In this document: in pieces, positions 2,900 through 37,915 of the stretch
Position numbering within the stretch: the first letter of the stretch is position 1
Layout of the letters: each line of letters starts with the position of its first letter
Source: Minisyncoccota bacterium
Lineage (GTDB): Bacteria > Patescibacteriota > Minisyncoccia > Phycocordibacterales > JABAAK01
Assembly: GCA_963668425.1 (NCBI GenBank)
Contig: OY764332.1
Location: 359,504-423,503, forward strand
Length of the DNA: 64,000 nucleotides
Reading direction: 5' to 3'
Notes under the pieces: generated by a model
Seen by the model: only the letters and a program-made list of their open reading frames with translations
Database searches by the model: none
What the model was told of the DNA's origin: nothing
Translations under genes and position numbers: made by a program

Positions 2900-5254
2900 A
2901 TGATTTTGTATATAGATACCCTTGCCCTACTGTACCGTGCGTATTATGCATTTCCTGATTTGCGGGCGTCTGATGGTACACCTGCAGGAGCGTTATTCGG
3001 ACTGACGAATACACTTTTTCGTGTTGTTGCTGAGATGGAGCCGGATCATATTGTTGCGTGTTTTGACAGACCAGAGGAAACTTTTCGGCAGCAGTTGCAC
3101 GCTGAGTATAAGGCGAATCGTGAGATGCCGGAGGAGGATATGATTATGCAGATTGATTTGTCGCGGGAAATGTTGCAGTCGTATGGTGTGCATACTGTTG
3201 AAAAAGCAGGATACGAAGCGGATGATTTATTAGGGACACTTGTTGTTATTGATGCAAAACGTGAAGAAGAAGCGGTTATTGTCTCTGGTGATGGGGATTT
3301 GTTGCAGTTGACAGTGTATCCGAATGTGCGTGTGTATTTACTTCGGAAAGGGATGAGTGACTTTGTGTTGTATGACGAGAAGGAGGTAGAGAAGAAGAAT
3401 GGGTATCCGGCGAGGTATGTTATTGATTATAAAGGACTTGCGGGAGATAGTTCTGATAATATCACTGGTGTTCCGGGTGTTGGTGATGTCTATGCGAAGC
3501 GACTCATTACTGCTTTTGGTGATCTTGATGCGATTTATAAGGCGGTTGACGCCGAGGTTTTAGAAGGTGAGGGGTTTACAAAGCGGATTGTTACCTTGCT
3601 TGAGCAAGGTCGTGACAGCGCGTTTGCCTCGCGTGAGTTGGCGACTATTCATACTGATGTGCCGATTATTGCTCCACACACCAAGGCAAAGAAATGGAAA
3701 GATTTCATAGTATATTCTGATGCTCAGAAGATGCTTGAACGATATGCTTTCACATCACTCTTGTCGCGCTTGAGTGCTATTACTGGAGGTGGTGATGGTG
3801 CTGGAGGCAATAATGGATCTTCTGACGTTGTTGACACACCTTCTGGCGCTGTTTTTGAGGATGCTGCTACTCGGGCGGTGTCTGTCGCATTGTGGGTACT
3901 TGATGCGACCAAAACAAATGCAAGTTTTGAAGATGTGTGTGTTTGTACTGGTCAGCGTTCTCCAGAGGATGCACTTGCGTTTATTGAGAAGGAGTTGAAG
4001 GCGAATAACTTGTTGTCGGTGTGGAGGGATATTGAGCAACCACTTCTTCCTGTTGTTGAGGAGATGGAGCGGATTGGAGTTTGTTTTGACTTACAGGGTG
4101 CGAAAAGATTGAGCGGTATGTATCAGAAAAAGATTGCATCTTTGACAAAAGAAATATACAACCTTGTTGGCAAAGAGTTTAATATTAGTTCTCCGAAGCA
4201 ATTAAGTGAGGTGTTGTATGGTGATCTTAATTTAAAGCCAAGGCGTGCATCAAAGACCGCTTCTGGAGGAAAGACGACCAAGGAATCAGTGTTGTTGCAA
4301 ATGGTTGATGATCATCCTGTTGTGTCGTTGGTGCTTGAATATAGACGTTATGAGAAATTGCGCTCCACCTATGTTGATGCATTGCCTTCGTTTGTTGCTG
4401 CTGATGGGCGAATACACACAACCTTACAACAGAATGGGACAGTGTCAGGACGGTTTTCTTCTCGAGATCCGAATTTGCAGAATATACCAGCTGGTGGTGA
4501 GGATGGTATCGCTATTCGCAATCTGTTTGTTGCTGCTGATGGGTGGGAGATGGTGGCAATTGATTATTCGCAGGTGGAGTTGCGGCTCGCCGCTATTTTG
4601 TCGCAAGATAAGGCACTATTGGATGTTTTTCGACGAGGTGTGGATGTTCATCGGGCAGTTGCTGCGCAGGTTTTTTCGGTTTCGCAGGATGCTGTAACAC
4701 CAGAGCAGCGTCATAATGCGAAGACAATTAATTTTGGGGTTCTTTATGGCATGGGGGCACAGTCACTGAGTCGTTCGTTGGCTGTCCCGTTGACTGAAGC
4801 AGATGCATTTCTCACTGACTACAAAAAAGCATTTCCGGCGTTGTTTGATTACCTTGATGGACTCAAAGGAGAAGCGTTGACTTCTGGTTTTGTGACCACT
4901 GCGTTTGGGCGGGTGCGACCGATTAGTGGTATCACCTCTTCACTTGCTTTTGTGCGGGCACAAGCAGAGCGGACTGCTGCAAATACAGTGATACAAGGTA
5001 CCGCCGCTGATATCACCAAGATTGCGATGGTTCGTGTTGATGCGATGTTGAAAGAGACAGGGTTGGTGGAAGATGTGCGCATGCTGTTGCAAATTCATGA
5101 TGAATTGTTGTTTGAGATTCGCCCTCGTGTTGCTGATCGGGCGATAGAGAAGATTGTAGAGGTGATGGAATCGGTGTATCCGGAGAATAAGAAGCCAATA
5201 CCACTGTTGGCAAGTGTTGGCAGAGGGAAGTCGTGGGGGATGTTGAAAGAGTGA
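2900..5254 (+). CDS. polA: DNA polymerase I. It has a 5'-3' exonuclease domain plus a family A polymerase domain, with only a ~100-aa vestige where the 3'-5' proofreading domain would be.
   Basis: N-terminal 5' nuclease region (LYRAYYAFP, GDSSDNITGVPGVG). Pol A motifs 'RDPNLQNIPAGGEDGIAIRNLF', 'RHNAKTINFGVLYGMG', 'QIHDELLFE'. Start moved to the internal ATG (MILYIDTLALL). Confidence 0.9.
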   Translation: MILYIDTLALLYRAYYAFPDLRASDGTPAGALFGLTNTLFRVVAEMEPDHIVACFDRPEETFRQQLHAEYKANREMPEEDMIMQIDLSREMLQSYGVHTVEKAGYEADDLLGTLVVIDAKREEEAVIVSGDGDLLQLTVYPNVRVYLLRKGMSDFVLYDEKEVEKKNGYPARYVIDYKGLAGDSSDNITGVPGVGDVYAKRLITAFGDLDAIYKAVDAEVLEGEGFTKRIVTLLEQGRDSAFASRELATIHTDVPIIAPHTKAKKWKDFIVYSDAQKMLERYAFTSLLSRLSAITGGGDGAGGNNGSSDVVDTPSGAVFEDAATRAVSVALWVLDATKTNASFEDVCVCTGQRSPEDALAFIEKELKANNLLSVWRDIEQPLLPVVEEMERIGVCFDLQGAKRLSGMYQKKIASLTKEIYNLVGKEFNISSPKQLSEVLYGDLNLKPRRASKTASGGKTTKESVLLQMVDDHPVVSLVLEYRRYEKLRSTYVDALPSFVAADGRIHTTLQQNGTVSGRFSSRDPNLQNIPAGGEDGIAIRNLFVAADGWEMVAIDYSQVELRLAAILSQDKALLDVFRRGVDVHRAVAAQVFSVSQDAVTPEQRHNAKTINFGVLYGMGAQSLSRSLAVPLTEADAFLTDYKKAFPALFDYLDGLKGEALTSGFVTTAFGRVRPISGITSSLAFVRAQAERTAANTVIQGTAADITKIAMVRVDAMLKETGLVEDVRMLLQIHDELLFEIRPRVADRAIEKIVEVMESVYPENKKPIPLLASVGRGKSWGMLKE

Positions 5255-5280: not shown

Positions 5281-5982
5281 ATGTTGTATGTGTTTTGTGG
5301 GGATCGATTTGGGGCGCGGGAGCTGAGTAAAGAGTTTGTTGCCGTGTGTCAGAAGAAGCGGGAGGGAGCTGAATATATCTATCTATCACCTGCAATTGCA
5401 TATCACTCCTTGGAGGAGTTGCTGTTTGGGCAGGGGTTGTTTGAACAGAAGTATATTGTGTTTTGTGATGAGATGTTGCATGATTCTTCAGGTCAGCACA
5501 TGATTGACAATTTGTCGCTCTATTCTGAGTCACCACATATGTTTGTGGTATTTGAGCCGTCTTTGTCCTCAGGGGATGAAAAAAAGCTTGTTAGCGCTGG
5601 TGCAGTGATTAAACGATGTGAGGAAGGAAGGGCAGTAGCAGAGGATGTTCGTCCAGTGTTTGCATTTGTTGATGTGTTTTTACGTGGAGATCGGGAGAAG
5701 TCGTTTGTTGCGCTGTATTCTTTGTTGGAGAGTGGAGCGTTGCCATCCTCGGTGTTGAATATGATGTTGTGGCAGTTGCGGATGTTGGTATTAGTGTCGC
5801 AATCTGATAGTGCCACCACCGCTGGTGTGAAGCCATTTGTATACACAAAGGCGAAAAAGGCACTCACTGTTGTCCGCGATCCCTTTGTTTTGTTTGTGCG
5901 AGCTGAAGAGGGTGTTCGTCAGAGTCGACTACGTGGTTTGCAGGATACGGAGATTGTAGAATGCCTTGTTTTAAGTTTGTAG
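5281..5982 (+). CDS. holA: Probable DNA polymerase III delta subunit (short HolA-like).
   Basis: The N-terminus 'MLYVFCGDRFGARE' resembles the delta-subunit 'IYLLYGEE' start. Size and position next to polA/ruvA are consistent. Assignment is by weak similarity only. Confidence 0.45.
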   Translation: MLYVFCGDRFGARELSKEFVAVCQKKREGAEYIYLSPAIAYHSLEELLFGQGLFEQKYIVFCDEMLHDSSGQHMIDNLSLYSESPHMFVVFEPSLSSGDEKKLVSAGAVIKRCEEGRAVAEDVRPVFAFVDVFLRGDREKSFVALYSLLESGALPSSVLNMMLWQLRMLVLVSQSDSATTAGVKPFVYTKAKKALTVVRDPFVLFVRAEEGVRQSRLRGLQDTEIVECLVLSL

Positions 5983-6064
5983 TTTTGCTTTGTGCCGTAA
6001 TTATTACCTGTGTTCTGCGTGTTTCTCTCGTGTGTGATTGTGGGTAGTATGGCATACTGGCTAT

Positions 6065-6637
6065 ATGATAGGAATACTTATGGGTACTGTTCGGGATGCG
6101 GGTAAGGATATGGTGGTGGTAGAAACAAAGGGAGGTGTTGGGTATGCGGTTGTTGTTTCGGCAGCAACAAAAAATAGCGCTCTTTCCAAAGAGCCCTGTA
6201 CCTTGTACACACATACTGCTGTTCGTAAAGATACAATAGATCTGTTTGGGTTTCTTGAGCAGGAGGAGTATTCTACCTTTTTACTACTTCTCTCTGTTTC
6301 TGGCGTTGGTCCGAAGAAGGCACTTGCAGTGCTTGATGCGATGCCGGTGCAGACACTTTTGTCAGCCATCCAAAAAGAGGATGTTGTCACCTTGGCTTCG
6401 TTTGGGGTAGGGAAAAAGCAGGCACAACGGATGGTGCTTGACCTGCAGAAGAAGATAGAGATTGATTCGGTTGATTCGGAGGTATCCAATGACCTTTTCG
6501 CTACTCTTATTGCACTTGGGTATGAGAAAAGGGAAATTTCAGAGGTCTTGAAGGATGTTGTTCTACAAGGTAATACAGTTGAGGAGCAGGTGCAGACATT
6601 TTTAAAACTTGTGCGTGAGGCGAAGGTTCGTCGCTGA
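6065..6637 (+). CDS. ruvA: Holliday junction DNA helicase RuvA.
   Basis: 'MIGILMGTV' start. HhH motifs 'LLLLSVSGVGPKKALAVLD' and a C-terminal domain III-like tail. ~190 aa. Confidence 0.85.
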   Translation: MIGILMGTVRDAGKDMVVVETKGGVGYAVVVSAATKNSALSKEPCTLYTHTAVRKDTIDLFGFLEQEEYSTFLLLLSVSGVGPKKALAVLDAMPVQTLLSAIQKEDVVTLASFGVGKKQAQRMVLDLQKKIEIDSVDSEVSNDLFATLIALGYEKREISEVLKDVVLQGNTVEEQVQTFLKLVREAKVRR

Positions 6638-6640
6638 GGT

Positions 6641-7627
6641 ATGAGGATTTTTCATAAGGTGTTTTTGGCTTTATGTGTTGTTGGTGTTATATTTTATTTT
6701 TCTTCATATCCGCAGCAACAGATTTCACTTACCTCATCAGAGCATCATCAAAAAAAACAGGAGGATTCATATACGATATTTTTTGCCGGTGATGTGATGT
6801 TGGACAGAGGTGTTGGTTTGCAAGTTGCACGGTACGGTGATGATGATTGGCGATTTCCGTGGCGTTTTATTGCTGAACAATTTTTATCGGCAGATGTGGT
6901 GTTTTTGAATCATGAGGGTGTGATGAGTGATGTTGGGCAGGATGCCGGTGGTGTGTATTCTTTTAATTTCCCTCTCGCCGCTCTTGATGGATTGTTATTT
7001 GCTGGTGTTGATGTGGTTAGCTTGGCGAATAATCATAGTTTTGATTGGGGAGGAGTGGCGCTATGTGACACAAAGAGACGGCTGAATGAGCATGATATCG
7101 GGACTGTTGGTGCTGGATGTTCGTATACAGAGGCAAATGCGCCATACGTTCATGCATTTGATGATGGGAGTAGTGTTGGTTTTCTTGGGTATACCTCATT
7201 TTATCCGAATGGTGTTGCCGGCAATACATACCCTGGTATTTCTGACTACACTCTGGAGAATATGCAACAGAATATTACTACTTTGAGGGAATCTGTTGAT
7301 GTGATCTTTGTTTCTCTACATTGGGGTGAGGAGTATCAGCCAAGGTCAAATGCAGAGCAGCAGATGATTGGGCGTGCACTTATTGATGCTGGAGCTGATA
7401 TTATTATTGGACATCACCCACACGTTATTCAGGAAGTTGAGGAGTATAATGGTGGGTGGATTTTTTATAGTTTGGGCAACTTTATTTTTGATCAGTATTT
7501 TTCTGCGGAGACGATGGAGGGTTTGGTTGCTATGGCAACTGTGCAAGGAGGTGCGATTGTGTCCGTTGATACTAAAAAAGTACTCCTTAATACCTATTTT
7601 CAGCCAATGTTTGTGGATGTGGAGTGA
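6641..7627 (+). CDS. CapA/PgsA-family calcineurin-like metallophosphatase (poly-gamma-glutamate capsule synthesis family).
   Basis: 'IFFAGDVMLDRGV', 'LANNHSFDWG' and 'GHHPHVIQEVE' are the conserved CapA motifs. N-terminal TM anchor. Confidence 0.75.
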   Translation: MRIFHKVFLALCVVGVIFYFSSYPQQQISLTSSEHHQKKQEDSYTIFFAGDVMLDRGVGLQVARYGDDDWRFPWRFIAEQFLSADVVFLNHEGVMSDVGQDAGGVYSFNFPLAALDGLLFAGVDVVSLANNHSFDWGGVALCDTKRRLNEHDIGTVGAGCSYTEANAPYVHAFDDGSSVGFLGYTSFYPNGVAGNTYPGISDYTLENMQQNITTLRESVDVIFVSLHWGEEYQPRSNAEQQMIGRALIDAGADIIIGHHPHVIQEVEEYNGGWIFYSLGNFIFDQYFSAETMEGLVAMATVQGGAIVSVDTKKVLLNTYFQPMFVDVE

Positions 7628-7674: not shown

Positions 7675-8733
7675 ATGAAAGGTATGCAGTTAGGCACACT
7701 TTTGCCGATTTTTCTCTTCTTTTTACTCTTTGCTGGTATTCTCATTATCTACAGGGAAGAGATAGAAAAGATGGAGCTCTTTGGAAAATTGCACACGTCT
7801 CCGGTTCCCGCAACACGCATTGATCAACCTGCTGTCCCTTCTGCTCCGGTCATCCCACTATCTCTCACTTCTTCTGCGACTACTACATCAGTGTCCAATG
7901 TTCGTGTGATTTCTTTTGGGGATGGGCGTGTTGTTGATTCTACCTTACGTAATATTCCGATTGTTGATTTGCGTGCCGGTGTTGGATCGCTACACACCCT
8001 TTTACCAAACGTCAGTGATTATTACGCTCGAGCGTTTGTTGAAGAGTCGTCCGATTTGTATAATCCGTCTCCACATGTCGGTTCTGTTATTTTTCTTGAT
8101 AGGGTTTCTAATATCAAGGAAACAGACCCAGATCGTGAGTATTTTGTACTTCTTGTATCCAATGCTCTGTCAGCACCTATTACTATCACAGGTTGGAAGG
8201 TGCTTGATCGGCAGGACGGTGTTTCGTATACGTTTTCTCGTGGGGTTAAGGTATTTGGCTCAGGTGATGTTTCCTTGCCGATTGAGGTGTATTCTGGTGA
8301 CAGAATTTTTGTCTCTTCTGGGGATTCTCCGACCAACACTTCGTTTCAGGTGAATAAATGTTCTGGGTATCGTTCTCAGTTTGAGAACTTTACTCCGACC
8401 ATAAAAACATTTTGCTCAGATCCGGTTCAGGATTTTTCGGATTACGGAGATGTCCCTTTTTCTGATGCTGTGTGCTACTCAATGGTTTCCTCTCTTTCGC
8501 CTTGTACGACAGTGCGTACTATTCCTTCTGGTGTTACTGCAAAATGTCGTAGTTTTTTGCAGGACGTTTTGACTGAAAAAGGGTGTGTGTCCCGTCATCG
8601 CAATGATCCTGATTTTTTTACTGGAGAGTGGCGGTTGTTTTTAAAATCGGATAAAGAGATTTGGAAAAATCGTGATAATGTTTTGTATTTACTTGACGAG
8701 AATGACCTTCTCGTCGCCACTCTGGTGTATTAG
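7675..8733 (+). CDS. Membrane-anchored hypothetical protein with a lamin-tail-domain (LTD)-like segment.
   Basis: N-terminal TM. 'EYFVLLVSNALSAPITITGWKVLDRQDGVSYTFSRGVKVFGSGDVSL' matches the LTD pattern (EYIELxN...L.GW.L.D......F). Confidence 0.4.
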   Translation: MKGMQLGTLLPIFLFFLLFAGILIIYREEIEKMELFGKLHTSPVPATRIDQPAVPSAPVIPLSLTSSATTTSVSNVRVISFGDGRVVDSTLRNIPIVDLRAGVGSLHTLLPNVSDYYARAFVEESSDLYNPSPHVGSVIFLDRVSNIKETDPDREYFVLLVSNALSAPITITGWKVLDRQDGVSYTFSRGVKVFGSGDVSLPIEVYSGDRIFVSSGDSPTNTSFQVNKCSGYRSQFENFTPTIKTFCSDPVQDFSDYGDVPFSDAVCYSMVSSLSPCTTVRTIPSGVTAKCRSFLQDVLTEKGCVSRHRNDPDFFTGEWRLFLKSDKEIWKNRDNVLYLLDENDLLVATLVY

Positions 8734-9096: not shown

Positions 9097-9244
9097 CTGT
9101 GTGCAGGGTTTGCTACCACTAGAATGATAGCATTGTTTCTGCTGTTGGCAAATTTATCAGAATATACCACACACTTTTGTCATTTGTATTGATTGCAGTG
9201 ATTTAGTGTTGCTATGTGCTGTTGTATGCGGTATAGTGTTTTTA

Positions 9245-9520
9245 ATGGCTAATACAGCTGCGGCTAAAAAGGCAATGCGCGTTTCTGCGCGGAAGAGGGT
9301 GTTTAACCTGCGTCGTTCGCGTACCATGCGGTCTCTTATGAAGGAGGTTGTTTTGAAGTATCGGAGTGGTGATGCTGAGGGTGCACGCACGCAGTTTCGT
9401 GAAGCACAGCAGGCGATTGACAAGGCGACAAAGCGGGGGGTGATTAAACAGCGGACAGCATCTCGCAGAAAGGCGATGTTGTCTCGGGCAATAAAGCCGG
9501 AGGTGGTAAGCAGTACATAG
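9245..9520 (+). CDS. rpsT: 30S ribosomal protein S20.
   Basis: 'MANTAAAKKAMRVSARKRVFNLRRS...' matches the S20 N-terminus (MANxKSAKKRA). Start taken at the internal ATG. Confidence 0.8.
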   Translation: MANTAAAKKAMRVSARKRVFNLRRSRTMRSLMKEVVLKYRSGDAEGARTQFREAQQAIDKATKRGVIKQRTASRRKAMLSRAIKPEVVSST

Positions 9521-9529
9521 GTGTGTTGT

Positions 9530-9874
9530 ATGGATATGATTGGTATTGAACATTTTTCTTCGGTTGAGATGGTTGTTGGTCGGATTGTGTTTGCTGAGAG
9601 TATGGACGGCTCTGATAAAATGTTGCGATTACTTGTTGATACTGGCGGTCCCAATAGCCGAACCATCCTCTCTGGCATCGCGCAGCACTATACTCCTGTT
9701 TCTCTGATTGGGCGGAAATGTGTTGTTGTGGTAAATTTGCAACCAAAGGACATTATGAATGTTGAGAGTAATGGTATGGTGATATGTGCAACGTACAAGG
9801 ATGGGTTGGGTGATGTCAGTGTACGGTTGATAGAGCCGGCACTTGGAATCCCTGTCGGATCTCGACTGTCGTAG
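9530..9874 (+). CDS. Standalone tRNA-binding OB-fold domain protein (Myf/EMAP/CsaA-like, as found at MetRS C-termini).
   Basis: 'MIGIEHF...VVGRIVFAESMDGSDKMLRLLVDTGGPNSRTILSGIAQHYTPVSLIGRKCVVVVNLQPK' is the tRNA-binding domain signature. Located directly upstream of metG. Confidence 0.6.
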   Translation: MDMIGIEHFSSVEMVVGRIVFAESMDGSDKMLRLLVDTGGPNSRTILSGIAQHYTPVSLIGRKCVVVVNLQPKDIMNVESNGMVICATYKDGLGDVSVRLIEPALGIPVGSRLS

Positions 9875-9903
9875 GTTTTTCTATTTTCTCTTGTTGCGGT
9901 AGT

Positions 9904-11643
9904 ATGGGTAGTATGAAGGGTGTTTCTGAATCAAAGCATGTTTTTGTCGCATCTGCGTGGCCCTATGCGAATGGGTTGTTGCACTTGGGACACATTGCTT
10001 CGCTTGTCGGGGCAGATGTGCTCGCGCGATATCATCGGCTGAAAGGGGATCAGGTATTATTTGTTTCAGGGAGTGATTGTTATGGCACTCCTGTTGCACT
10101 TGAGGCAGTTGCACAAGGTGTTGACCCTGCGTCCATTGCTGATAAGTACCATGCCGAATTTTGTAAATCATTTGATGCACTTTCATTTTCGTTTGATTTA
10201 TACACTAAAACTACCACACTGGAGCACCAAAAGGTAGTGCAAGATATTTTTTTACGTTTATATACATCTGGATATATCTACACCAAAGTTGATAAAGCAT
10301 TGTACTCTCCCGCTCTGCAACGATTTTTGCCGGATCGGTTTGTTGAAGGTGAGTGTCCTCACTGTGGTTTTGATGGTGCTCGAGGTGATCAGTGTGATGC
10401 GTGTGGTACGTTACTTGACTCATTGTTGCTTAAAAATCCTCGTGTTAACTCCAAGATGTTTGTAGGACAAGATGCTTCTGTTGACCAATCTCTTGAGGTG
10501 CGTGAGTCGGAACATTTTTATTTAAAACTTACCGCGTTTCAAGATGTGTTGGAGCAGTGGGTTGGTTCTGTGAGTGATTCATGGCGAGTACAGGCAGCAC
10601 AATTTACGAAAGGTTTTCTAAAGCAGGGGTTACATGATCGTGCTATTACACGAGATACTGATTGGGGGGTTCCAATACCGGTTGACGGCTATGATGATAA
10701 GCGGATATATGTGTGGTTTGAGGCAGTGTTGGGGTATTTGTCCGCGGCAATGCACTGTTGTCATGATCGGGGAGATGCTGCTGGTTGGAAGCAGTGGTTT
10801 TTTTCCGATGATGCGGTGCATTATTACGTACACGGTAAGGATAATGTGCCGTTTCATAGTATTATTTTGCCGGCGATTTTGAAAGGTGCAGGTACATATC
10901 ACTTACCGGATATGTTGTTTTCTTCGGAATATTTATCCCTTGAGGGAAAACAACTTTCTACTAGTCGCGGGTGGGCGATATGGGTTTCTGATTTTCTTGA
11001 GCAGTTTGATTCTGAGTTGTTGCGGTATTATATGTTGGCGCATGGTCCTGAGACCTCCGATACTGATTTTCGTTGGTCTGAATTTGGGCAGAGGGTGAAT
11101 GGGGAGTTGATCGGCACTTTTGGTAATTTGGTACATAGGATATGCTCATTTACACAGAAAAATTTTCCTGATGGAGTTTCCTTCAATGGTGAGGTTGATG
11201 ATTTTTCAAAGCAGCTACTTTCTGGTGCTGAGGGGGCGTTTGCTCTTGTTGGTGCACACATAGAATCTGGGCAGTTTCGGCAAGGGTTTCGTGAGGTGTT
11301 AAGGGTTGCTGAGGAGGCAAATCGTTTTGCACATACCAAGGAGCCATGGAAGCATTTGGATGATGTGGCTCGTGTTCAGACCGATCTTTCCGTGTTGTTG
11401 CATACTATTCGCACTCTTTCGGTCTTGGTGCAGCCGTTTTTGCCGAGGACTTCCGTTAAGATACAAGGTTTTTTTGGTTCTGATAGTATTGAGAGCACGT
11501 CTTGTGTTTCCCATGCACTTTCCACTTGGCGTTATTCTGAATTACCAAAAACTTTTACTTTGCAGGAGATTGAACCACTTTTTCAGAAGGTTGAAGATGA
11601 CGTGATACAGAAGCAGCAAGAAATATTACGTGCGCGTGGGTGA
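9904..11643 (+). CDS. metG: Methionyl-tRNA synthetase.
   Basis: 'WPYANGLLHLGH' (HIGH region), zinc knuckle 'CPHCGFDGARGDQCDACG', KMSKS-region 'GKQLSTSRG', and an anticodon-binding C-terminal domain. Confidence 0.9.
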   Translation: MGSMKGVSESKHVFVASAWPYANGLLHLGHIASLVGADVLARYHRLKGDQVLFVSGSDCYGTPVALEAVAQGVDPASIADKYHAEFCKSFDALSFSFDLYTKTTTLEHQKVVQDIFLRLYTSGYIYTKVDKALYSPALQRFLPDRFVEGECPHCGFDGARGDQCDACGTLLDSLLLKNPRVNSKMFVGQDASVDQSLEVRESEHFYLKLTAFQDVLEQWVGSVSDSWRVQAAQFTKGFLKQGLHDRAITRDTDWGVPIPVDGYDDKRIYVWFEAVLGYLSAAMHCCHDRGDAAGWKQWFFSDDAVHYYVHGKDNVPFHSIILPAILKGAGTYHLPDMLFSSEYLSLEGKQLSTSRGWAIWVSDFLEQFDSELLRYYMLAHGPETSDTDFRWSEFGQRVNGELIGTFGNLVHRICSFTQKNFPDGVSFNGEVDDFSKQLLSGAEGAFALVGAHIESGQFRQGFREVLRVAEEANRFAHTKEPWKHLDDVARVQTDLSVLLHTIRTLSVLVQPFLPRTSVKIQGFFGSDSIESTSCVSHALSTWRYSELPKTFTLQEIEPLFQKVEDDVIQKQQEILRARG

Positions 11644-20059: not shown

Positions 20060-20133
20060 GGGCGATTAGCTCAGTTGGCTAGAGCGTCTGGTTTACACCC
20101 AGAAGGTCGCAGGTTCGAGCCCTGCATCGCCCA
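20060..20133 (+). tRNA. tRNA-Val (anticodon UAC).
   Basis: Manual fold: acceptor GGGCGAT/ATCGCCC, D-arm GCTC-AGTTGGCTA-GAGC, anticodon stem TCTGG/CCAGA with loop UUUACAC, T-arm GCAGG-TTCGAGC-CCTGC, discriminator A. No encoded CCA. Confidence 0.9.
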
Positions 20134-20156
20134 CCGAGGTCTGTAGTGTTATATGC

Positions 20157-30808: not shown

Positions 30809-33800
30809 ATGAGTATTACAAATAAAGTAACCGTAGGGTTAGTTTCTTTTGCTTTCGTCTTTTCTTTTGTTGTGGTTAATTCTGTAACCGCACAGAACGA
30901 CGAAGATCAAATAGCCACTCTTCAGGCGCAGATTGCACAATTGCTTGAGCAAATCAAGGGATTGGAATCAGGGCAGACGAGTGGTGGTAGTAGCAGTACT
31001 TACACTGCCACTGCTACAGGAAGCAATGCAGCATGTTCATATACATGGACACGAAACCTTTCCATAGGATCTACTGGCGATGACGTCCGCCAGTTGCAAC
31101 GATTCCTCAATGGTAACCCTCAAACTCAAGTAGCTGTAACAGGTGTTGGTTCTCCTGGTAATGAGTCTAGCTACTATGGACCTGCAACCGCTCGGGCGGT
31201 GAGCAAGTTCCAAGAGATGTATGCTGCGCAAATCTTGACTCCGCTTGGTCTGACGAATGGTACTGGTGGTTTTTACACCTCAACACGTGCCCGCTTGAAT
31301 GAAGTGTGTCAGGGAAGCAGTGGAAGTGGATCTGGTATTTCAGTTAATCATGCTGGAACACGATCAGCGACTTCGCCTGCTGTTGTGCGGGTAACGGGTG
31401 ACGCCCTTGCAGTAACGGCTGGAAATCCAATCAGTGATTCATATGTTGTGCTTGGTGCGCAACGAGCGCCGTTTACCTCGGTTGTGTTGACCGCAGGATC
31501 TGATGATGTTCGGATAGAGAGTATTCGTATTAAGCGATTCGGACTCTCTTCATCTGACAACTTTGAGAGTATTGCGTTGGTTGATGCCAATGGTGTACAA
31601 GTTGGCTCCGCTCGATCGTTGAACAGTCGGGATGAGGTTAGCTTAGGTAGCAATTTTATAGTGCCGGCGAATCGATCAGTAACCTTGGCGGTCATTGGTA
31701 ATATGTCCAGTGATACTGACGAGTTTACTTCAGGATCTATCGCAGGTCTTGAGGTGGCAGAGGTTGTCGCTGATGCTCGGGTTCAGGGTACATTCCCAAT
31801 TCGTGGAGCAGCTCACGTTCTTTCGACGAGTATTGAACTCCAGAAAGTTGAGATTGAAGTGAGTGGAGGAGGTGGTAGTATTGAGTTTAATGAGGATACT
31901 GAGGTTGCCTCAGTTTCTATTGATTTGAGATCTGAGACCGTTGGAGGTGTTGATGCTGATAAGGAGGATGCGTATCTTCGGTCTGTTATTCTTGAGCAGA
32001 TTGGTAGTGTAGATGCTAGTGAAATCGGAGATCTCACAGTGTTTGTGGATGATGATAGAGTTGACCATGTTATTGCTGTTGATCGTGACCGTTTCATTAT
32101 CAATTTTGGTGGTAAGGGTGTAATGATTGAAGAAGGTGATGATGTGGAAATAACCGTTGAGGCGAACACCGATCGTGGCTATGAGGAGACCGTGCAGTTT
32201 GCTATTGATGACATGTCTGATGTGTATATTCTCGGTGCGAGTTATGGCTATGGTCTGCCGGTTTGTTTTGCAGGTGACGATAATTGTGATGGTAAGCAGG
32301 ATGAGACTGATTCATGGGACGATAACACCAAGACCTCTGTGGCGACTATTTCTTCCGGAAAGATTGCTAAAGGTGATCGTCTGAAGAAGTTTGAGGATGA
32401 AGTTCACTATGGCGACGATGTTATCCTTGGTGCGTATTCTGTTGAATTTGAGGGTGAAGATGTTTTGATGGAAGACCTAACTTTTGAAGTTTCGTTGAGC
32501 AATTATCCATGGACAAGCACCAGCGACAATGCGTGGGTAGACGCGGATGAGGACACTGTTCGTTTTGATAGTGTTCGTCTGCGAGTGGATGGTGAGAATG
32601 TCGCCTACGCTAGTGACAGTATTGACTTTGATGATTCGGATGCGGATGGTACTAGTATAGATTTGGATGTTGAATTTGATGGTGGTTTCACCGTTGATGT
32701 TCGTGATGATCGCGAAGTTATCTTTGAGATTGTCGCTGATCTTGATGCGGCATGGGGTCACTTCGAAGGCACATCTGTTGAATTTACCCTTACGGATGTT
32801 GATACTGCCGAGGGTGTGAGTTCTGAACGGGACTACACCGCTACGGGTGAGTACTTTGCGTCTGCTATTGAATTTGAAGATGTGAAGATTATGGGTAATG
32901 AGATTTCCTTTGATATTAACGATGATGGTGTTGATGGTACCAGTTTCGTTAGAGGTGCTGACAGTGTCGTGTTTGGTACCTTTGAAGTTGATGCGAAGGA
33001 TGCTATTGATGATGTGGAATTGCGTGATCTCTACTTGAGCTTCCAGATTCCATCTGACTCTGACCTTAGCACTGCTGTTGGTGACTTGAGTGATTTGAAT
33101 AACTGTCGCATTCTTGACGAAGGTGGTGATGAGATTGCCGATAGTCGTGGTGTTACAGGTGTGAAAGTAGCTGCTGACACTGATGTGGTAAATGATCAGG
33201 CGCGATTCCGATTTGACGACTATGTTGTTGAAGCAGGAGAGCGTGAGGATATGGATATCGTCTGTGATATTGATGACGGAGCTGACTCTGGAGATGCATT
33301 CAGGATTTCTGTTGATGTTAGTTCTACTGTGAATGACCGTGTGAAGTATAGAATTGGTCGAGATGAGGATGACATGTCGCTTGGTACTGGTTCGTCATCT
33401 ATTATTCAGATTGGTTCAAGTGGTGAGCTTACGATCTCAACAGATTACCCTGATGAGGATGAGGCTGTTATAGCAGTGGCAACTGGTAAGAGCGGTGCTG
33501 ATGATGTTGCTGTGCTTGAGATTGAGCTTGAGGCGGAGAAAGAAGATATAGAGATTTTAGATGTGTATCTCTCGCTCCCAACAAACATGGGTGCTCAAGT
33601 TGGCGGTAGTGCTGTTACTGTAGATGCAGATGAGCTGGAGGAGGTGTATGATCGCTTTACTCTGAAACTCGGTAACACGACCGCTGATGTGGATGATTAT
33701 ATGGCAACTGAGACATTTGCTGCGGCTGATTATGTCAATCAAAGTAGTGATGTTACTGGCACTAAATTAGTTATGTTTGAAGATGTGAATGAGATTGTTC

Positions 33801-34537
33801 GGGAAGGTGATGACAATGCGGAGACATTTGACCTGACATTTGACTTTAATGGTATTGACGATGATGATGGTGTTGCCGGTCAGTTTATTAAAGGATTCGA
33901 ATTGATTGTTGTTTGGGAAGGTGATGATAGTGGTACGGTTAACCTTACTAGACACACAATTGGTGATATCTTTACTGTTGCGTTGCCATTCCCAACTGTG
34001 CCGACTGTTTCAACGACGGAGACGAATCGCACATTGCAGGTAAGCGAGCAGAAGATCTATGAATTTACCGTGAATGCTGATGATGAAGGTGATGTGTATC
34101 TTGGTCAGGTTGGGTTTTCTATCAGCTTGAGCGATGGTGCCCAAATTGACGCAGGAGGTATTAAAGTCTATCGGGGTACTGGTAACAGTGGTGATTCTCG
34201 CGGTACGAATGCTTCTGCTGCTTCTGCTGCTACGAAGGTTGAGTTTACCACTCCTGAGCGAATTGACGCTGGTGAATCAAGAACGTACTCAGTGTATGCT
34301 GATGTGGGGGATGGTCTTGGGGAGAATGCTTCTGTAACTGTTCAGTTACTTCACGATGAGAAAGAGACCACTCCAGAGGCCGGTCGTCAGCATGGGGCAG
34401 CAAAAACAGCTGGTAACTTTGTTTGGTCACCGAATGCGCTTGACAATGACGGAGCGAAAACTAGCAATGCTGACTGGTTTACTGGTTGGACGGTTGTTAA
34501 GGACTCTGACACTAAGCAGTGGCGCCTTGAGAGATAG
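30809..34537 (+). CDS. Large (1242 aa) secreted, strongly acidic protein with an N-terminal signal/TM, a coiled-coil, a peptidoglycan-binding (PG_binding_1-like) domain and a long D/E/V/G-rich beta-type body.
   Basis: 'LSIGSTGDDVRQLQRFLNGNP...YYGPATARAVSKFQEMYAAQILTPLGLTNGTGGFYTSTRARL' fits the PG-binding domain pattern. The rest is low-complexity acidic. Confidence 0.5.
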   Translation: MSITNKVTVGLVSFAFVFSFVVVNSVTAQNDEDQIATLQAQIAQLLEQIKGLESGQTSGGSSSTYTATATGSNAACSYTWTRNLSIGSTGDDVRQLQRFLNGNPQTQVAVTGVGSPGNESSYYGPATARAVSKFQEMYAAQILTPLGLTNGTGGFYTSTRARLNEVCQGSSGSGSGISVNHAGTRSATSPAVVRVTGDALAVTAGNPISDSYVVLGAQRAPFTSVVLTAGSDDVRIESIRIKRFGLSSSDNFESIALVDANGVQVGSARSLNSRDEVSLGSNFIVPANRSVTLAVIGNMSSDTDEFTSGSIAGLEVAEVVADARVQGTFPIRGAAHVLSTSIELQKVEIEVSGGGGSIEFNEDTEVASVSIDLRSETVGGVDADKEDAYLRSVILEQIGSVDASEIGDLTVFVDDDRVDHVIAVDRDRFIINFGGKGVMIEEGDDVEITVEANTDRGYEETVQFAIDDMSDVYILGASYGYGLPVCFAGDDNCDGKQDETDSWDDNTKTSVATISSGKIAKGDRLKKFEDEVHYGDDVILGAYSVEFEGEDVLMEDLTFEVSLSNYPWTSTSDNAWVDADEDTVRFDSVRLRVDGENVAYASDSIDFDDSDADGTSIDLDVEFDGGFTVDVRDDREVIFEIVADLDAAWGHFEGTSVEFTLTDVDTAEGVSSERDYTATGEYFASAIEFEDVKIMGNEISFDINDDGVDGTSFVRGADSVVFGTFEVDAKDAIDDVELRDLYLSFQIPSDSDLSTAVGDLSDLNNCRILDEGGDEIADSRGVTGVKVAADTDVVNDQARFRFDDYVVEAGEREDMDIVCDIDDGADSGDAFRISVDVSSTVNDRVKYRIGRDEDDMSLGTGSSSIIQIGSSGELTISTDYPDEDEAVIAVATGKSGADDVAVLEIELEAEKEDIEILDVYLSLPTNMGAQVGGSAVTVDADELEEVYDRFTLKLGNTTADVDDYMATETFAAADYVNQSSDVTGTKLVMFEDVNEIVREGDDNAETFDLTFDFNGIDDDDGVAGQFIKGFELIVVWEGDDSGTVNLTRHTIGDIFTVALPFPTVPTVSTTETNRTLQVSEQKIYEFTVNADDEGDVYLGQVGFSISLSDGAQIDAGGIKVYRGTGNSGDSRGTNASAASAATKVEFTTPERIDAGESRTYSVYADVGDGLGENASVTVQLLHDEKETTPEAGRQHGAAKTAGNFVWSPNALDNDGAKTSNADWFTGWTVVKDSDTKQWRLER

Positions 34538-34571
34538 TGCAGTTCTGAGATTTGCCATCAACTATGGCAAT

Positions 34572-34728
34572 CAAAACCAAAAACCCGCTGAAAGAAAAGC
34601 GGGTTTTTGGTTTGTCTCGTAGGGGTTACTTGAGCAATCTATTGAACAGAGAATATTTGGATGGGATACTGTACTGCATTGCCCAACATCCTATGTGTTG
34701 GCAGAGAGTGCAAAACTGGTGCTTAGGT
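34572..34728. repeat. Direct repeat copy 1 (~150 bp incl. a 23-bp insertion). Contains a bidirectional terminator-like hairpin AAAAACCCGC-TGAAAGAA-AAGCGGGTTTTT followed by a conserved ~90-bp segment.
   Basis: Near-identical to 35744-35880, with about 5 substitutions in the shared ~130 bp. Confidence 0.85.
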
Positions 34729-35019
34729 TGCGTATTTTACAGTGTTGATTGCAATAACAATAAGTCCGGTAACCCCAGAAACCAATAGGATTGACTGAAT
34801 GGCAATATATAGCCAGCTCTTCTTGAGCGATTCTTTGATTTTTTGATCAATAGTATCACCAAACTTCCCACTATCTATGTGCTCTCCTATGATGGTTTTG
34901 ATTATTCTTTCAACCTCCTTGCTTTCAGAAAGCATGTGTAGCATGCGGCTTTCAAAGTCTTCATTAGCAACAAACGTGTCTCGTTGTTTATCTGTGATTG
35001 TTTCTTTATTTTTTGCCAT
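34723..35019 (-). CDS. Hypothetical small tail-anchored membrane protein (98 aa, single C-terminal TM).
   Basis: ORF with 'WLYIAIQSILLVSGVTGLIVIAI' C-terminal helix. A-rich codon usage unlike the flanking genes. Overlaps the upstream 73-aa ORF by 14 nt. Confidence 0.35.
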   Translation of the reverse strand: MAKNKETITDKQRDTFVANEDFESRMLHMLSESKEVERIIKTIIGEHIDSGKFGDTIDQKIKESLKKSWLYIAIQSILLVSGVTGLIVIAINTVKYAT

Positions 35020-35227
35020 CTTTCATTTCATCAGAGGGTGTGTATTTTTTGGAGCCAACAGATAACCCCTGTCCTTTTGACTGCTCTGCAACATCCAAGA
35101 GAAAGGCAATTGTGCTTGCATCTCCTTTCATTCCGTACTCTTTAGTGATGGTGCGAAGTTTGTCAAAGTGTCCGTTAGTGAATTCAACGTTAATCTTGTT
35201 GTCAGTGTTTTCTAAGTTGATAGCCAT
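35006..35227 (-). CDS. Hypothetical small soluble protein (73 aa), first gene of a two-gene minus-strand pair.
   Basis: ATG start. A -10-like CATACT lies immediately upstream, so the transcript may be leaderless. No recognised domain. Confidence 0.3.
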   Translation of the reverse strand: MAINLENTDNKINVEFTNGHFDKLRTITKEYGMKGDASTIAFLLDVAEQSKGQGLSVGSKKYTPSDEMKDGKK

Positions 35228-35340
35228 ACCAATAGTATGCCATGACTGCCTAATCTGTGCTATTCTGAAGACACAATAGTTTTCCCCACGTTAACCACAT
35301 TTTTTGTTGGTTGCCGTTGAAACTGAAAGCATTGAAATGA

Positions 35341-35358
35341 CTCCTCTACGGAGAGGAG
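35341..35358. promoter_or_regulatory. Perfect 18-bp palindrome CTCCTCT-ACGG-AGAGGAG in the divergent intergenic region between the small-gene pair and the STAS-like gene. Candidate operator or hairpin.
   Basis: 7-bp arms with a 4-bp spacer. Followed by a T-run and a TATACT -10-like box 7 nt before the ATG at 35391. Confidence 0.35.
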
Positions 35359-35390
35359 TAGGGGTATTTTTTCTTTTGTATACTAAATAT

Positions 35391-35723
35391 ATGAAAAAAG
35401 TGTTTCTTAAAGCATATGGCACTGTCTTGGTTGGTAGGAAAGATGGTACTGAGGCATTTGTTGCACTAGAGAGAAATATGCGGGACATGCCTGAGGGTGA
35501 GGTACTATTTTTTGATTTTTCAGACATTATCACCTTTGCACCAACATGGTGTGATGAGTTCTTTGGAGAAGCTACAATCAAATATCCTGGAAGAATAGTC
35601 ATTGATGAATCAATTGGCGAAGGATTAAGGAAGCCCTTTGAGGTTATAGCAGAAGCAAGAAAAATAGCATTCACTTTTGGATCGTTTGTTGAAACCAAGA
35701 ATGAGAAGATGAGCCAAGATTAA
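35391..35723 (+). CDS. Small STAS-like (DUF4325-like) domain protein (~110 aa).
   Basis: The pattern 'K.YGTVLVGRKDGTEAF..LE......EGEVLFFDFSDIITFAPTWCDEFFGE' resembles the DUF4325 STAS-like signature (..DF..V..isSSF.DEl.G.). Start moved to the internal ATG 'MKKVFLKAYG'. Confidence 0.35.
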   Translation: MKKVFLKAYGTVLVGRKDGTEAFVALERNMRDMPEGEVLFFDFSDIITFAPTWCDEFFGEATIKYPGRIVIDESIGEGLRKPFEVIAEARKIAFTFGSFVETKNEKMSQD

Positions 35724-35743
35724 GGAATGATACACCGGCAACC

Positions 35744-35880
35744 TAAAACTAAAAACCCGCTGAAAGAAAAGCGGGTTTTTGGTTTGTCTTCTATTGAACA
35801 GAGAATATTTGGATGGGATGCTGTACTGCATTGCCCAATATCCTATATGCTGGCAGAGAGTGCAAAACTGGTGTTTAGGT
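35744..35880. repeat. Direct repeat copy 2 (~130 bp); see copy 1.
   Basis: Shares the AAAAACCCGCTGAAAGAAAAGCGGGTTTTTGGTTTGTCT...GGCAGAGAGTGCAAAACTGGTG core. Confidence 0.85.
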
Positions 35881-35896
35881 GATATAGTAGAAGTAT

Positions 35897-36367
35897 ATGG
35901 GAGATATAGCATTTACTGTTAATGCACTAAATGTATTAATTGCGTGTGGAGGATTAATTGCACTCACTTTGGGGTGGTTATTCAAAATACACGGCAGGGT
36001 GTCAGAGCTTGAAGGCATAAACAAAGGTAAAGAATTAGCAAAAGAACAAAGCCCACTTACTCTCACAGATGCAGGCAATGCCTTATTGTGTGATAGTGGT
36101 GGTAAAAAATACATTGAAGATAACGAAAAATCATTGATAAAAAACTTTAATGACTTGGACAATGCTTTTGATATACAGGAGAAGGCAAAAGACATAATAC
36201 GGGAAAAGATGAAAGAGCCAAACGCTCTTAAAAATATCAAGATATACCTTTTTGATAATGGAAAGTCCGTTGAAGATATAGTTTTGGTGATGGGGTTGGA
36301 ATTGCGCGATGCTGTCTTTAAGCATAAAGGTATAGCAGTTGAGCAAGTGGACGCAGACAAAAGTTGA
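35897..36367 (+). CDS. Hypothetical membrane-anchored protein (N-terminal TM + ~120-aa soluble domain) immediately upstream of the MTase-HNH gene.
   Basis: 'VNALNVLIACGGLIALTLGWLF' helix. A-rich codon usage. No family recognised. Confidence 0.35.
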   Translation: MGDIAFTVNALNVLIACGGLIALTLGWLFKIHGRVSELEGINKGKELAKEQSPLTLTDAGNALLCDSGGKKYIEDNEKSLIKNFNDLDNAFDIQEKAKDIIREKMKEPNALKNIKIYLFDNGKSVEDIVLVMGLELRDAVFKHKGIAVEQVDADKS

Positions 36368-36463
36368 CCTTGCTCTATATAAGCAAAAGAACATACAAGT
36401 TTGAGTTCTTAACAATTCGCTCTTATAAACGCTGGCTGAATTGCCTGACTGCCATAGAGTAAA

Positions 36464-37915
36464 ATGCTTGTGGTTTATACTGTTTTCAAGATGTCTACTC
36501 CTAATTTCAAGCCGAATACACTCTTCACGAGAGATAATTTGTATATTTTGCGTGGCATGAACAGTGAGTGTGTTGACTTGATATATCTTGATCCGCCATT
36601 TAATTCAAAAAAAAACTATGTTGCACCTTTGCCTGTGAAGGATGAAGAAATACTTGCCTCATTCAAGGATGTATGGAAACTCATTGATATTGATGAAGCG
36701 TTGCATGAGGAATTGCAGGAGACTCAGCCATGTTTGTATGAGATTATTAAGGGTGTTGAAGCAGCACACTCCAAGGCGATGTTTTCATACTTGATATACA
36801 TGACCATGCGACTGGTTGAAATGCATCGTGTGCTAAAACCAACAGGAAGTATATTTCTGCACTGCGATCCAACGGCAAGCCACTACTTAAAAATAGTGAT
36901 GGATTGTATTTTTGGAAAGAGTAATTTTAGAAATGAGATTATTTGGTGTTACGGTGAAACGGCCAGAGGTGCAAAGGCAAAAGCCAGTCAGTTTGCACGA
37001 AATAATGATGTGATACTTTTTTACGGAAAAACAAGTCAACATCTCTTTAACAAAACATATTTTGAAAGGAAAATAAAGTTTGAGGGGTCAGGGTATCAGC
37101 GGGAGGATGATGGACGATGCTTTAGAACAGCACCACGAGGCGATTATACAGATGACAGTATTGAAAGGTTAAGAAGGGAAGGTAGGATTTATGAGACAAG
37201 AAACGGGACTATACGCATTAAATATCATGAAAAATGTGATGAAACCTTTGTGTATGAAAAAAAACTTTTTGGTAATGTTTGGTCAGATATACCTGATATG
37301 ATGCACGCAGAAGAGATAGAAAAAACCGGCTATTCAACTCAAAAGCCGTTAAAACTATTACAGCGAATCATCAATACAGGTAGCAAAAAAGGTGGTTGGG
37401 TACTTGACCCATTCTGTGGATGTGCAACTACCATGGTTGCCGCAGAAAAACTGGGGAGGAAGTGGGTTGGCATTGATGCCTCTCATTTTGCAAAATTTTT
37501 TGTTAAAAGCAGAATGGAAAAAGAATTGGAGAAAAAAATTCCTTTTATTTTTCTCAAGGATATATCTGGTAGGCAGTTCAGTGATGAAAAAGAATTGAGT
37601 GATTGGGAAAATAAGAAAAGGATGTATGAAGAGCAGGAAGGTGTATGCAATGGATGCGTTGGTCATTATCATGAAAAAGATATGACTATTGACCATATCA
37701 TACCAACATCAAAGGGCGGTCAAGACACACAAGATAACAAGCAATTACTTTGTTTTCACTGTAACACGACAAAGGGGACAGGAACAATGCCAACGCTATG
37801 GCAAAAACTTGCAAAAGGGCATGTATTGGAGTATCACGAAGCGGATAAACTCATACAAGAGCACAAAGACAGAAAAAAGAAACTTGAAAAAGAGTATGGA
37901 ACTAAAACACTATGA
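36464..37915 (+). CDS. DNA methyltransferase (beta-class N6-adenine/N4-cytosine type, motif IV before motif I) fused to a C-terminal HNH endonuclease domain.
   Basis: 'DLIYLDPPFNSKKNY' (DPPF catalytic motif) near the N-terminus and 'VLDPFCGCATTMVAAEKLGRKWVGID' (SAM-binding motif I) near residue 315. C-terminal 'CNGCVGHYHEKDMTIDHIIPTSKGGQDTQDNKQLLCFHCNTTKG' is a Zn-finger HNH motif. Confidence 0.8.
   Translation: MLVVYTVFKMSTPNFKPNTLFTRDNLYILRGMNSECVDLIYLDPPFNSKKNYVAPLPVKDEEILASFKDVWKLIDIDEALHEELQETQPCLYEIIKGVEAAHSKAMFSYLIYMTMRLVEMHRVLKPTGSIFLHCDPTASHYLKIVMDCIFGKSNFRNEIIWCYGETARGAKAKASQFARNNDVILFYGKTSQHLFNKTYFERKIKFEGSGYQREDDGRCFRTAPRGDYTDDSIERLRREGRIYETRNGTIRIKYHEKCDETFVYEKKLFGNVWSDIPDMMHAEEIEKTGYSTQKPLKLLQRIINTGSKKGGWVLDPFCGCATTMVAAEKLGRKWVGIDASHFAKFFVKSRMEKELEKKIPFIFLKDISGRQFSDEKELSDWENKKRMYEEQEGVCNGCVGHYHEKDMTIDHIIPTSKGGQDTQDNKQLLCFHCNTTKGTGTMPTLWQKLAKGHVLEYHEADKLIQEHKDRKKKLEKEYGTKTL

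Follow-up and report, generated by a model that had tools for sequence, protein, structure and literature searches.

A direct repeat of a terminator hairpin and its adjoining spacer at module boundaries of a small-gene island in a Minisyncoccota bacterium

Within a 64,000-nucleotide (nt) stretch of a Minisyncoccota bacterium genome (GenBank assembly GCA_963668425.1, contig OY764332.1, positions 359,504 to 423,503 of the forward strand; hereafter the window, whose own numbering is used below), a unit made up of a terminator hairpin and an adjoining non-coding segment of 91 nt, the body, occurs twice in direct orientation, at about 34564-34728 (copy 1) and about 35736-35880 (copy 2). On balance, we favour the interpretation that the two copies reflect a recent intra-locus duplication, or a tract of gene conversion or ectopic recombination, that took in a terminator together with the adjoining 91-bp spacer. 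The repeat is real and of an ordinary kind, an instance of a known phenomenon that looks scar-like rather than like a new RNA gene, and it is a member of no described RNA family.

Alignment of the copies revealed identity at 44 of 45 positions in the hairpin part (34573-34617 versus 35745-35789) and at 86 of the 91 positions of the body, with a start-to-start distance of 1172 nt for the former and 1152 nt for the latter. Overall the copies are approximately 95% identical, and the six substitutions among 136 aligned positions are all transitions, to which an indel of 20 nt is added. Similarity probably begins at the sequence GGCAA (34564 and 35736), some 9 nt ahead of the stem. Probes of 22-30 nt, drawn from the hairpin and two stretches of the body, each matched the 64-kb window exactly twice, with no matches expected by chance, and the repeat is therefore real and far above chance. 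An earlier reading of the DNA made from the letters alone (the sequence-only reading) had described two same-orientation repeats 1.17 kb apart, which both the alignment and the exact probes bear out; it had also counted about five substitutions and a 23-bp insertion in copy 1, and here the placement of the insertion stands, while its length is corrected to 20 bp and the number of substitutions to six.

The relatives of the locus provide the main evidence on its history. A syntenic contig from a metagenome-assembled genome of Candidatus Kaiserbacteria, L001, encodes a periplasmic binding protein with 77% amino acid (aa) identity to that of the window, and L001 and the related contigs L011-L015 have the flanks and a gene for a 109-aa protein in common with the window. 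Between these flanks, the length of the island, its content and the orientation of its genes vary among the window, L001, L011 and L012, and the islands of the relatives also hold SocA_Panacea genes. A pair of small genes, encoding proteins of 73 and 98 aa in the window, is found on the plus strand in all relatives compared, is inverted in the window and is present twice in both L001 and L011. An in-place inversion of this pair between inverted repeats was considered and rejected, as no inverted repeat of at least 14 nt was found at the presumed breakpoints. Judged by this comparison, the locus is a hypervariable small-gene island and not one inserted cassette. The genome that holds it is small and Kaiserbacteria-like, from an uncultured bacterium.

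L011 was informative with regard to the hairpins, which it carries after the big gene (9200-9239) and after a 110-aa gene (10357-10393) at a spacing of 1157 nt, compared to 1172 nt in the window. These hairpins form part of a direct repeat of about 250 nt (9180-9440 and 10335-10585) that includes approximately 200 nt of spacer and has 85% identity, and this repeated spacer was not alignable to the body of the window. The hairpin of copy 1 (T1) is orthologous to the hairpin behind the same gene in L011 (81-86%) and in L001. Over a hairpin region of 55 columns, the hairpin of copy 2 (T2) is 89% identical to T1 of the window, 79% to T1 of L011 and 62% to T2 of L011. Orthologous coding DNA of the window and L011 has 79-87% nt identity, and since the copies within the window are closer to each other than this, they would be younger than the split between the two; by the same measure, the T2-body of the window arose recently, after L011 had split off, by copying of a T1-type boundary. 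The 20-nt segment found in copy 1 only, CGTAGGGGTTACTTGAGCAA, aligns weakly to the beginning of the L011 and L001 spacer and may be a remnant of the ancestral spacer, although the likeness is suggestive only.

Taken together, the duplication of a boundary is supported by the position of the repeats at module boundaries of a hypervariable island, by the analogous repeat at the same two positions in L011 with a different spacer, and by the finding that the copies of one genome resemble each other more closely than they do their positional counterparts in another. Copy 2 moreover ends exactly at the promoter of a low-GC gene pair whose members also travel together elsewhere (in L021), the last base of the copy being the first base of an extended -10 element, TGATATAGT. 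In further support, neither an integrase (between 21.8 and 44 kb), a tRNA target, a terminal inverted repeat, a target-site duplication nor an attC core site was found. That such duplication is general is suggested by the islands of L021, L022 and L023, which contain many intra-locus repeats of 90-260 nt and 88-99% identity. The sequence-only reading had offered a duplicated insertion boundary or a recombination substrate as explanations, and the module-boundary position, the L011 analogue and the likeness of T2 to T1 speak in favour of these.

We propose that modules of small toxin-antitoxin (TA)- or defence-like genes in such islands would be reshuffled by homologous recombination. A fragment from a related strain, carrying in order the big gene, a T1-type hairpin, the body, a promoter, the gene for a 156-aa protein and a gene for a methyltransferase (MTase)-HNH fusion, would have served as donor and would have recombined ectopically at a resident look-alike hairpin behind the 109-aa gene. 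The outcome would be a second T1-body boundary, located 1.17 kb downstream of the resident copy and diverged from it to the extent seen between strains; the same picture would result from gene conversion, or from a tandem duplication followed by deletion. Direct repeats of about 137 bp and about 95% identity could also mediate RecA-dependent loop-out of the 1.17-kb three-gene cassette that they bracket, and recA is located 7 kb from the locus. If this holds true, the locus represents an ordinary case of variable-island remodelling in a very small genome of the Candidate Phyla Radiation (CPR) by way of look-alike terminators, with a 1.17-kb cassette prone to possible loss by repeat-mediated deletion.

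It should be noted that several points weigh against a passive duplication. The history is reconstructed from three relatives, and the copy count, two per 64 kb and both at one locus, covers the 64-kb window of the source genome. The 91-bp non-coding body is 95% identical amid differing surroundings, and selection on a functional element would look alike. The spacer repeated in L011 has kept 85% identity, more than the paralogous genes behind it (approximately 31-45% aa identity), and this conservation could point to function over passive homogenisation. Along these lines, there is a small chance that the hairpin-plus-spacer unit is a cis element specific to the lineage, marking the borders of cassettes in the variable islands of Kaiserbacteria-type CPR bacteria, either as a recombination site, which would let small-gene modules be exchanged, inverted or looped out, or as a terminator-ended regulatory RNA, which would co-evolve with a partner specific to the genome. 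This would account for the near-identical units that the window and L011 each have at two corresponding positions, with a sequence that differs between the genomes, and also for the high-identity intergenic repeats that crowd the islands of L021, L022 and L023. The units would matter more only if they are functional boundary elements or RNAs; to our knowledge, gene-cassette exchange and small-RNA regulation are almost unstudied in CPR bacteria.

Further copies of the body were sought widely. An nhmmer search against all retrieved loci returned, besides the copies of the window, only four k-mer loci matched by chance. A 20-mer of the body hit four loci in Joint Genome Institute (JGI) metagenome contigs, all of them chance matches of 21-25 nt with unrelated flanks. 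A 22-mer of the body had no match in the contigs of species-representative genomes, four exact patterns from body and hairpin had 0 matches in viral contigs, and blastn at a distant setting gave no match to phages and plasmids. The body was not found upstream of the homologs of the 156-aa gene in L020 and L021, and it is thus not a conserved leader of that gene family. The sequence-only reading had named the existence of only two copies, with no structural conservation elsewhere and no transcript, as the result that would count against its proposals, and with regard to copies and structure this is what was found within the window, the loci and the collections searched.

Direct repeats of about 140 bp that bracket a small promoter-bearing cassette in an island also call to mind site-specific recombination, in which the copies would be attL/attR or integron attC-like sites of a mobile cassette moved by a recombinase. 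The ends of copy 2 match in inverted orientation over 7 nt (ACCTAAA...TTTAGGT), and similar hairpins mark module boundaries in the relatives. We nevertheless regard this origin as very improbable. Pfam searches of the genes between 21.8 and 44 kb and of the syntenic relatives identified no integrase or recombinase, IntI-type included, and there is no tRNA target, the nearest tRNA being located at 20060-20135. Neither copy contains GTTRRRY, and a single internal RYYYAAC occurs in copy 1 only. In copy 1 the best terminal inverted match is 4 nt, and the flanks share no duplicated k-mer and no target-site duplication. Nor is the unit one long imperfect palindrome, as the folds pair only the first 40 nt with themselves and leave the body unpaired with the 5' end. 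Finally, the 109-aa gene inside the supposed cassette is syntenic in all relatives, and the cassette is hence not a recent insertion as a whole. An attC site was accordingly rejected for failing every attC feature checked (core sites, single hairpin, nearby IntI), attL/attR sites for want of an adjacent integrase and a tRNA target and for the synteny of the inter-repeat genes in relatives, and a repeat of the miniature inverted-repeat transposable element (MITE) or repetitive extragenic palindromic (REP) type because shared terminal inverted repeats and target-site duplications are lacking.

An artefact of metagenome assembly, with variants of a single boundary from two strains joined in tandem, would fit the divergence of 4-5%, which is of strain-level size, and the apparently metagenome-derived nature of the source contig. 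We find it scarcely credible, however, given that 1.0 kb of unique and gene-dense DNA, with a 109-aa gene that the relatives have in synteny, stands between the copies, and that the independently assembled L011 has a hairpin at both corresponding positions.

The anatomy of the hairpins is that of textbook bidirectional intrinsic (Rho-independent) terminators, from which we infer termination itself. The stem of T1 (AAACCAAAAACCCGCT / AGCGGGTTTTTGGTTT) is paired throughout its 16 bp, forming an A/T-flanked GC hairpin, while the stem of T2 comprises 15 bp and a G-U pair on the plus strand, the C>T change responsible giving an A.C mismatch on the minus strand. In both, five to six G-C pairs are lengthened by A/T pairs, with an A-tract upstream and a T-tract downstream, and TTTTTGGTTT directly follows each stem on both strands. 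The folding free energies (dG) are -26.3 (T1) and -24.0 (T2) kcal/mol on the plus strand and -24.4 (T1) and -17.8 (T2) kcal/mol on the minus strand; z-scores of the hairpins range from -7.5 to -3.7, with T1 at -7.5 (plus) and -6.0 (minus). A terminator scan scored the hairpin on both strands (T2 was listed on both, and the T1 core is identical). The description of each copy as beginning with a perfect hairpin that would terminate transcription in either direction consequently needs adjustment in one part, since the anatomy of a terminator is present on both strands and copy 1 is perfect, but copy 2 has 15 bp plus a G-U pair.

T1 is placed between two convergent genes, its stem lying 36 nt past the stop of the 1242-aa gene on the plus strand and 109 nt past the stop of the 98-aa gene on the minus strand, and by its anatomy it would end the transcript of the former and, in the opposite direction, that of the 73/98-aa operon. 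The stem of T2 begins 22 nt past the stop of the 109-aa gene on the plus strand, and T2 would end the transcript of that gene. A separate terminator-like hairpin with a T-run is found at 35343-35364 on the plus strand, just ahead of the 109-aa gene and with no plus-strand gene before it; the region is conserved in L001, and the hairpin may be a leftover of the layout of the relatives, which have the small-gene pair ahead of the 109-aa gene on the plus strand.

The body, on the other hand, showed no excess folding stability compared to dinucleotide shuffles (z-scores of +0.15 and +0.84 on the plus strand and of +0.63 and +0.31 on the minus strand), and mononucleotide shuffles agreed. With the z-scores of the body near zero and those of the hairpin strongly negative, the z-scores of the whole unit are owed to the terminator alone. 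The strings AACATCCTATGTG and AATATCCTATATG occur as the sequence-only reading described, and the pair of C>T and G>A changes turns a C-G into a U-A pair within a stem of 4 bp and a loop of 3 nt. The energy of this second hairpin is negligible, with a dG of -0.1 and 0.0 kcal/mol in the two copies, and when five transitions were placed at random on this 91-mer in simulations, a doubly compensated pair arose within a helix of 4 bp or more in 32% of the sets and within the RNAalifold consensus in 9%. The compensatory change is thus present as claimed, but it does not exceed chance, and a covariation test on two sequences has little power. The consensus structure was kept no better than in randomly mutated copies (p of approximately 0.4-0.7 on the plus and 0.10-0.14 on the minus strand), and the alifold energy of the observed pair of copies was not better than that obtained with random transitions. 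A search with Rfam 15 at gathering threshold detected three tRNAs only in the whole window, and between 34400 and 36000, with E up to 10, only sub-threshold terminator-type matches of 16-21 bits. From these analyses, the 91-bp body appears to have no demonstrable function of its own, and the suggestion of a repeated cis-acting RNA, either a small RNA (sRNA) or an element of a 3' untranslated region (3'UTR), found no support in the form of excess folding, an Rfam match or a further copy in the collections searched.

The version of that suggestion that we weighed in full places the RNA on the minus strand, where the reverse complement of the body would be a 3'UTR element or a 3'UTR-derived sRNA of about 110-140 nt that has the hairpin for its own terminator; the 73/98-aa operon would have copy 1 as its 3'UTR, and copy 2 would be a stand-alone copy or the remnant of a second operon. 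The order of body, terminator and U-tract is canonical, and the 98-aa gene must have copy 1 as its 3'UTR, since there is no other good terminator between its stop and T1. A TATACT hexamer identified by eye is located just upstream of copy 2 on the minus strand (35897-35892), all four internal substitutions fall in pairs of the minus-strand RNAalifold consensus and are kept through G-U pairing, and the related island of L022 has apparent multi-copy units of promoter, body and terminator. We still hold this origin to be unlikely, as the minus-strand body folds no better than its shuffles, the preservation of structure by the substitutions is not significant, the C>T change weakens the T2 stem on precisely this strand, the duplicated unit has no internal promoter, and no Rfam match and no homolog in the relatives or collections searched was found.

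On the plus strand, the body could instead provide the following gene with an upstream promoter or a leader, or could contain a 21-codon open reading frame (ORF) for a small Cys-containing peptide, a proposal that we consider quite improbable. The ORF is intact in both copies with start and stop alike, and the repeat ends 2 nt past the stop, yet four of the substitutions in it are non-synonymous and one is synonymous, giving no sign of purifying selection, and it is preceded neither by a convincing ribosome-binding site nor, at a suitable distance, by a promoter of the leaderless type. A promoter-like sequence noted by eye at 34642-34670 (TTGAAC-17-TGgGATACT) was not reported by a promoter scan; its -10-like hexamer does not have the T at -12 and is degraded further in copy 2, to GATGCT. 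A 37-codon T/G-rich ORF (MSVFF...YSCIGCCG...LTF) is likewise intact in each copy of the L011 repeat, but both of these copies have a second open frame as well, so that the open frames reflect T/G-rich composition. The 156-aa gene, moreover, has its own extended -10 outside the repeat, and no plus-strand gene lies downstream of copy 1. Duplication of a terminator and its spacer by recombination remains the interpretation that we prefer for the unit as a whole.

The elements of the unit and the genes around it are listed in Table 1. The island occupies 3.5 kb between the 1242-aa gene and the binding-protein gene and consists, in order, of T1 and the body of copy 1, the 98/73-aa pair on the minus strand, the 109-aa gene, T2 and the body of copy 2, and the MTase-HNH pair. 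It is flanked by housekeeping genes, those for S6, SSB, EF-P, RecA and FtsK upstream and those for a periplasmic binding protein, UvrA, EF-Tu and S10 downstream. PADLOC and Pfam searches of the cassette proteins returned the weak DUF4325 match and the MTase/HNH domains only.

Table 1. Elements of the repeated unit and neighbouring genes in the window
Feature	Position	Strand	Details
1242-aa secreted/surface protein gene	30809-34537	plus	ORF; PG_binding_1, Pfam PF01471
T1, hairpin part of copy 1	34564-34617		arms 34574-34589 / 34598-34613; 8-nt loop
Segment of copy 1 only, CGTAGGGGTTACTTGAGCAA	34618-34637		20 nt; from alignment of the copies
Copy 1 body	34638-34728		91 nt; on the minus strand, 3' untranslated stretch between 98-aa gene stop (34723-34725) and T1
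21-codon ORF	ATG 34661-TAG 34726; ATG 35813-TAG 35878	plus	within the body
98-aa protein gene	34723-35019	minus	C-terminal hydrophobic helix; second gene of two-gene module
73-aa 'TNGH-motif' protein gene	35006-35227	minus	first of pair; overlaps 98-aa gene start
109-aa DUF4325/STAS-like protein gene	35394-35723	plus	homologs carry PF14213; own match weak, E 0.016
T2, hairpin part of copy 2	35736-35789		arms 35746-35761 / 35770-35785; 8-nt loop
Copy 2 body	35790-35880		91 nt; spacer from T2 to 156-aa gene promoter
Extended -10 element TGATATAGT	35880-35888	plus	8 nt before 156-aa gene ATG
Low-GC two-gene module	35897-37915	plus	GC 0.37-0.39 versus ~0.45
156-aa membrane-anchored protein gene	35897-36367	plus	low-GC module
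N6/N4 DNA methyltransferase-HNH nuclease fusion gene	36464-37915	plus	low-GC module

The stop of the 1242-aa gene lies about 27 nt ahead of the start of copy 1 (34564), and the gene is syntenic with L001, L011 and L012 at 74-79% nt identity. Its 3' part (33789-34334) contains internal repeats with a period of approximately 114-117 nt, which suggests tandem domains in the protein. At its other end, copy 1 runs into the inverted 98-aa gene, whose last codon and stop overlap the final 6 nt of the body. A word-indexed search gave no close homolog of the 98-aa protein besides itself, and distant paralogs or orthologs are alignable in the relatives; in the family of the 73-aa protein, N18, G19 and H20 are invariant in five sequences. 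The 109-aa gene is conserved in place in the relatives and is 87% nt identical to its counterpart in L011.

The two small proteins belong to a recurrent module in which a protein of about 75 aa with invariant N-G-H is followed, with overlapping stop and start, by one of about 90 aa with a C-terminal hydrophobic helix. It was observed in the window at 34723-35227 (minus), in L001 at 3304-3767 and 5531-6040, and in L011 at 9425-9917 and 10570-10876, that is, once or twice per island; it has a TA-like layout and no family assignment. The pair formed by the 156-aa and MTase-HNH genes also recurs, in L021:6001-8123 beside AbiTii and SocA_Panacea genes, and may be an uncharacterised defence or restriction-like module.

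The sequence TGnTATA(C/G)T is common 4-9 nt before the ATG among genes of the window (examples are found at 953, 11766, 12414, 12845, 24964, 35880 and 38047), and from this habit TGATATAGT is assigned as the own promoter of the 156-aa gene. The same pattern suggests that the source genome uses extended -10 promoters with leaderless or very-short-leader mRNAs, and by the -10 criterion the binding-protein gene probably starts at ATG 38064 and not at GTG 38028.

Other repeats were observed in the islands of relatives. In L021, a terminator hairpin (CCTCCGATTGCTCGGAGG followed by T5) with about 70 nt of adjoining sequence is found behind two different genes (3079-3176 and 6617-6725; 89% identity, an 11-nt indel) and has the same anatomy as the window repeat, and an upstream region bearing a promoter is repeated at 8281-8397 and 9938-10057. 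L022 contains three units of 95-98% identity (approximately 592-723, 2472-2612 and 3642-3783), each with a TATACT -10, a body of about 100 nt and a strong terminator (GACCTCAAAAGAAGATCTCATGTATGAGGTC followed by a T-run); this three-copy unit looks like a multi-copy small-RNA gene, and it has no Rfam match and a fold z-score of only -2.5. In L001, a 64-nt segment with TGGTATACT is present in three copies (8489-8552, 9187-9250 and 9958-10021; 78-94%) directly ahead of three consecutive genes, and these are repeated promoter regions of probable paralogs, the last of which is the binding-protein gene.

Several known systems resemble the repeat in part. Bidirectional intrinsic terminators are an established concept (see also bioRxiv 10.1101/2022.10.23.513370), and the hairpins share with them the GC stem and a U-run readable on both strands, T1 being located between convergent genes; here, however, the duplication takes in 91 bp of adjoining spacer besides the terminator, and T2 stands among co-directional genes, where one direction would suffice. 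As in sRNAs that derive from a 3'UTR or end at a terminator, the minus-strand body of approximately 91-111 nt is followed by a strong terminator and, in copy 1, comes directly past a stop, but the unit differs from these in having no conserved structure, homologs or Rfam family. The attC sites of integrons, e.g. the Vibrio cholerae repeats, are of similar size (about 120-140 bp), are direct, contain an inverted repeat and flank small ORFs without assigned function as well as TA-like pairs; the unit, by contrast, has no R''/R' core sites, an inverted repeat over its first 40 nt only, no IntI-type integrase nearby and two copies rather than an array. Segmental duplications and gene-conversion tracts in defence and TA islands have in common with the window direct repeats of non-coding DNA that are highly identical and restricted to a single variable locus, copies that are closest within a genome, related islands full of repeats, and the presence of recA. 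The window copies differ from such tracts in that they do not have flanking paralogous genes to anchor conversion, and in that the edges of the tract coincide with the stop of a gene in copy 1 and with a promoter in copy 2.

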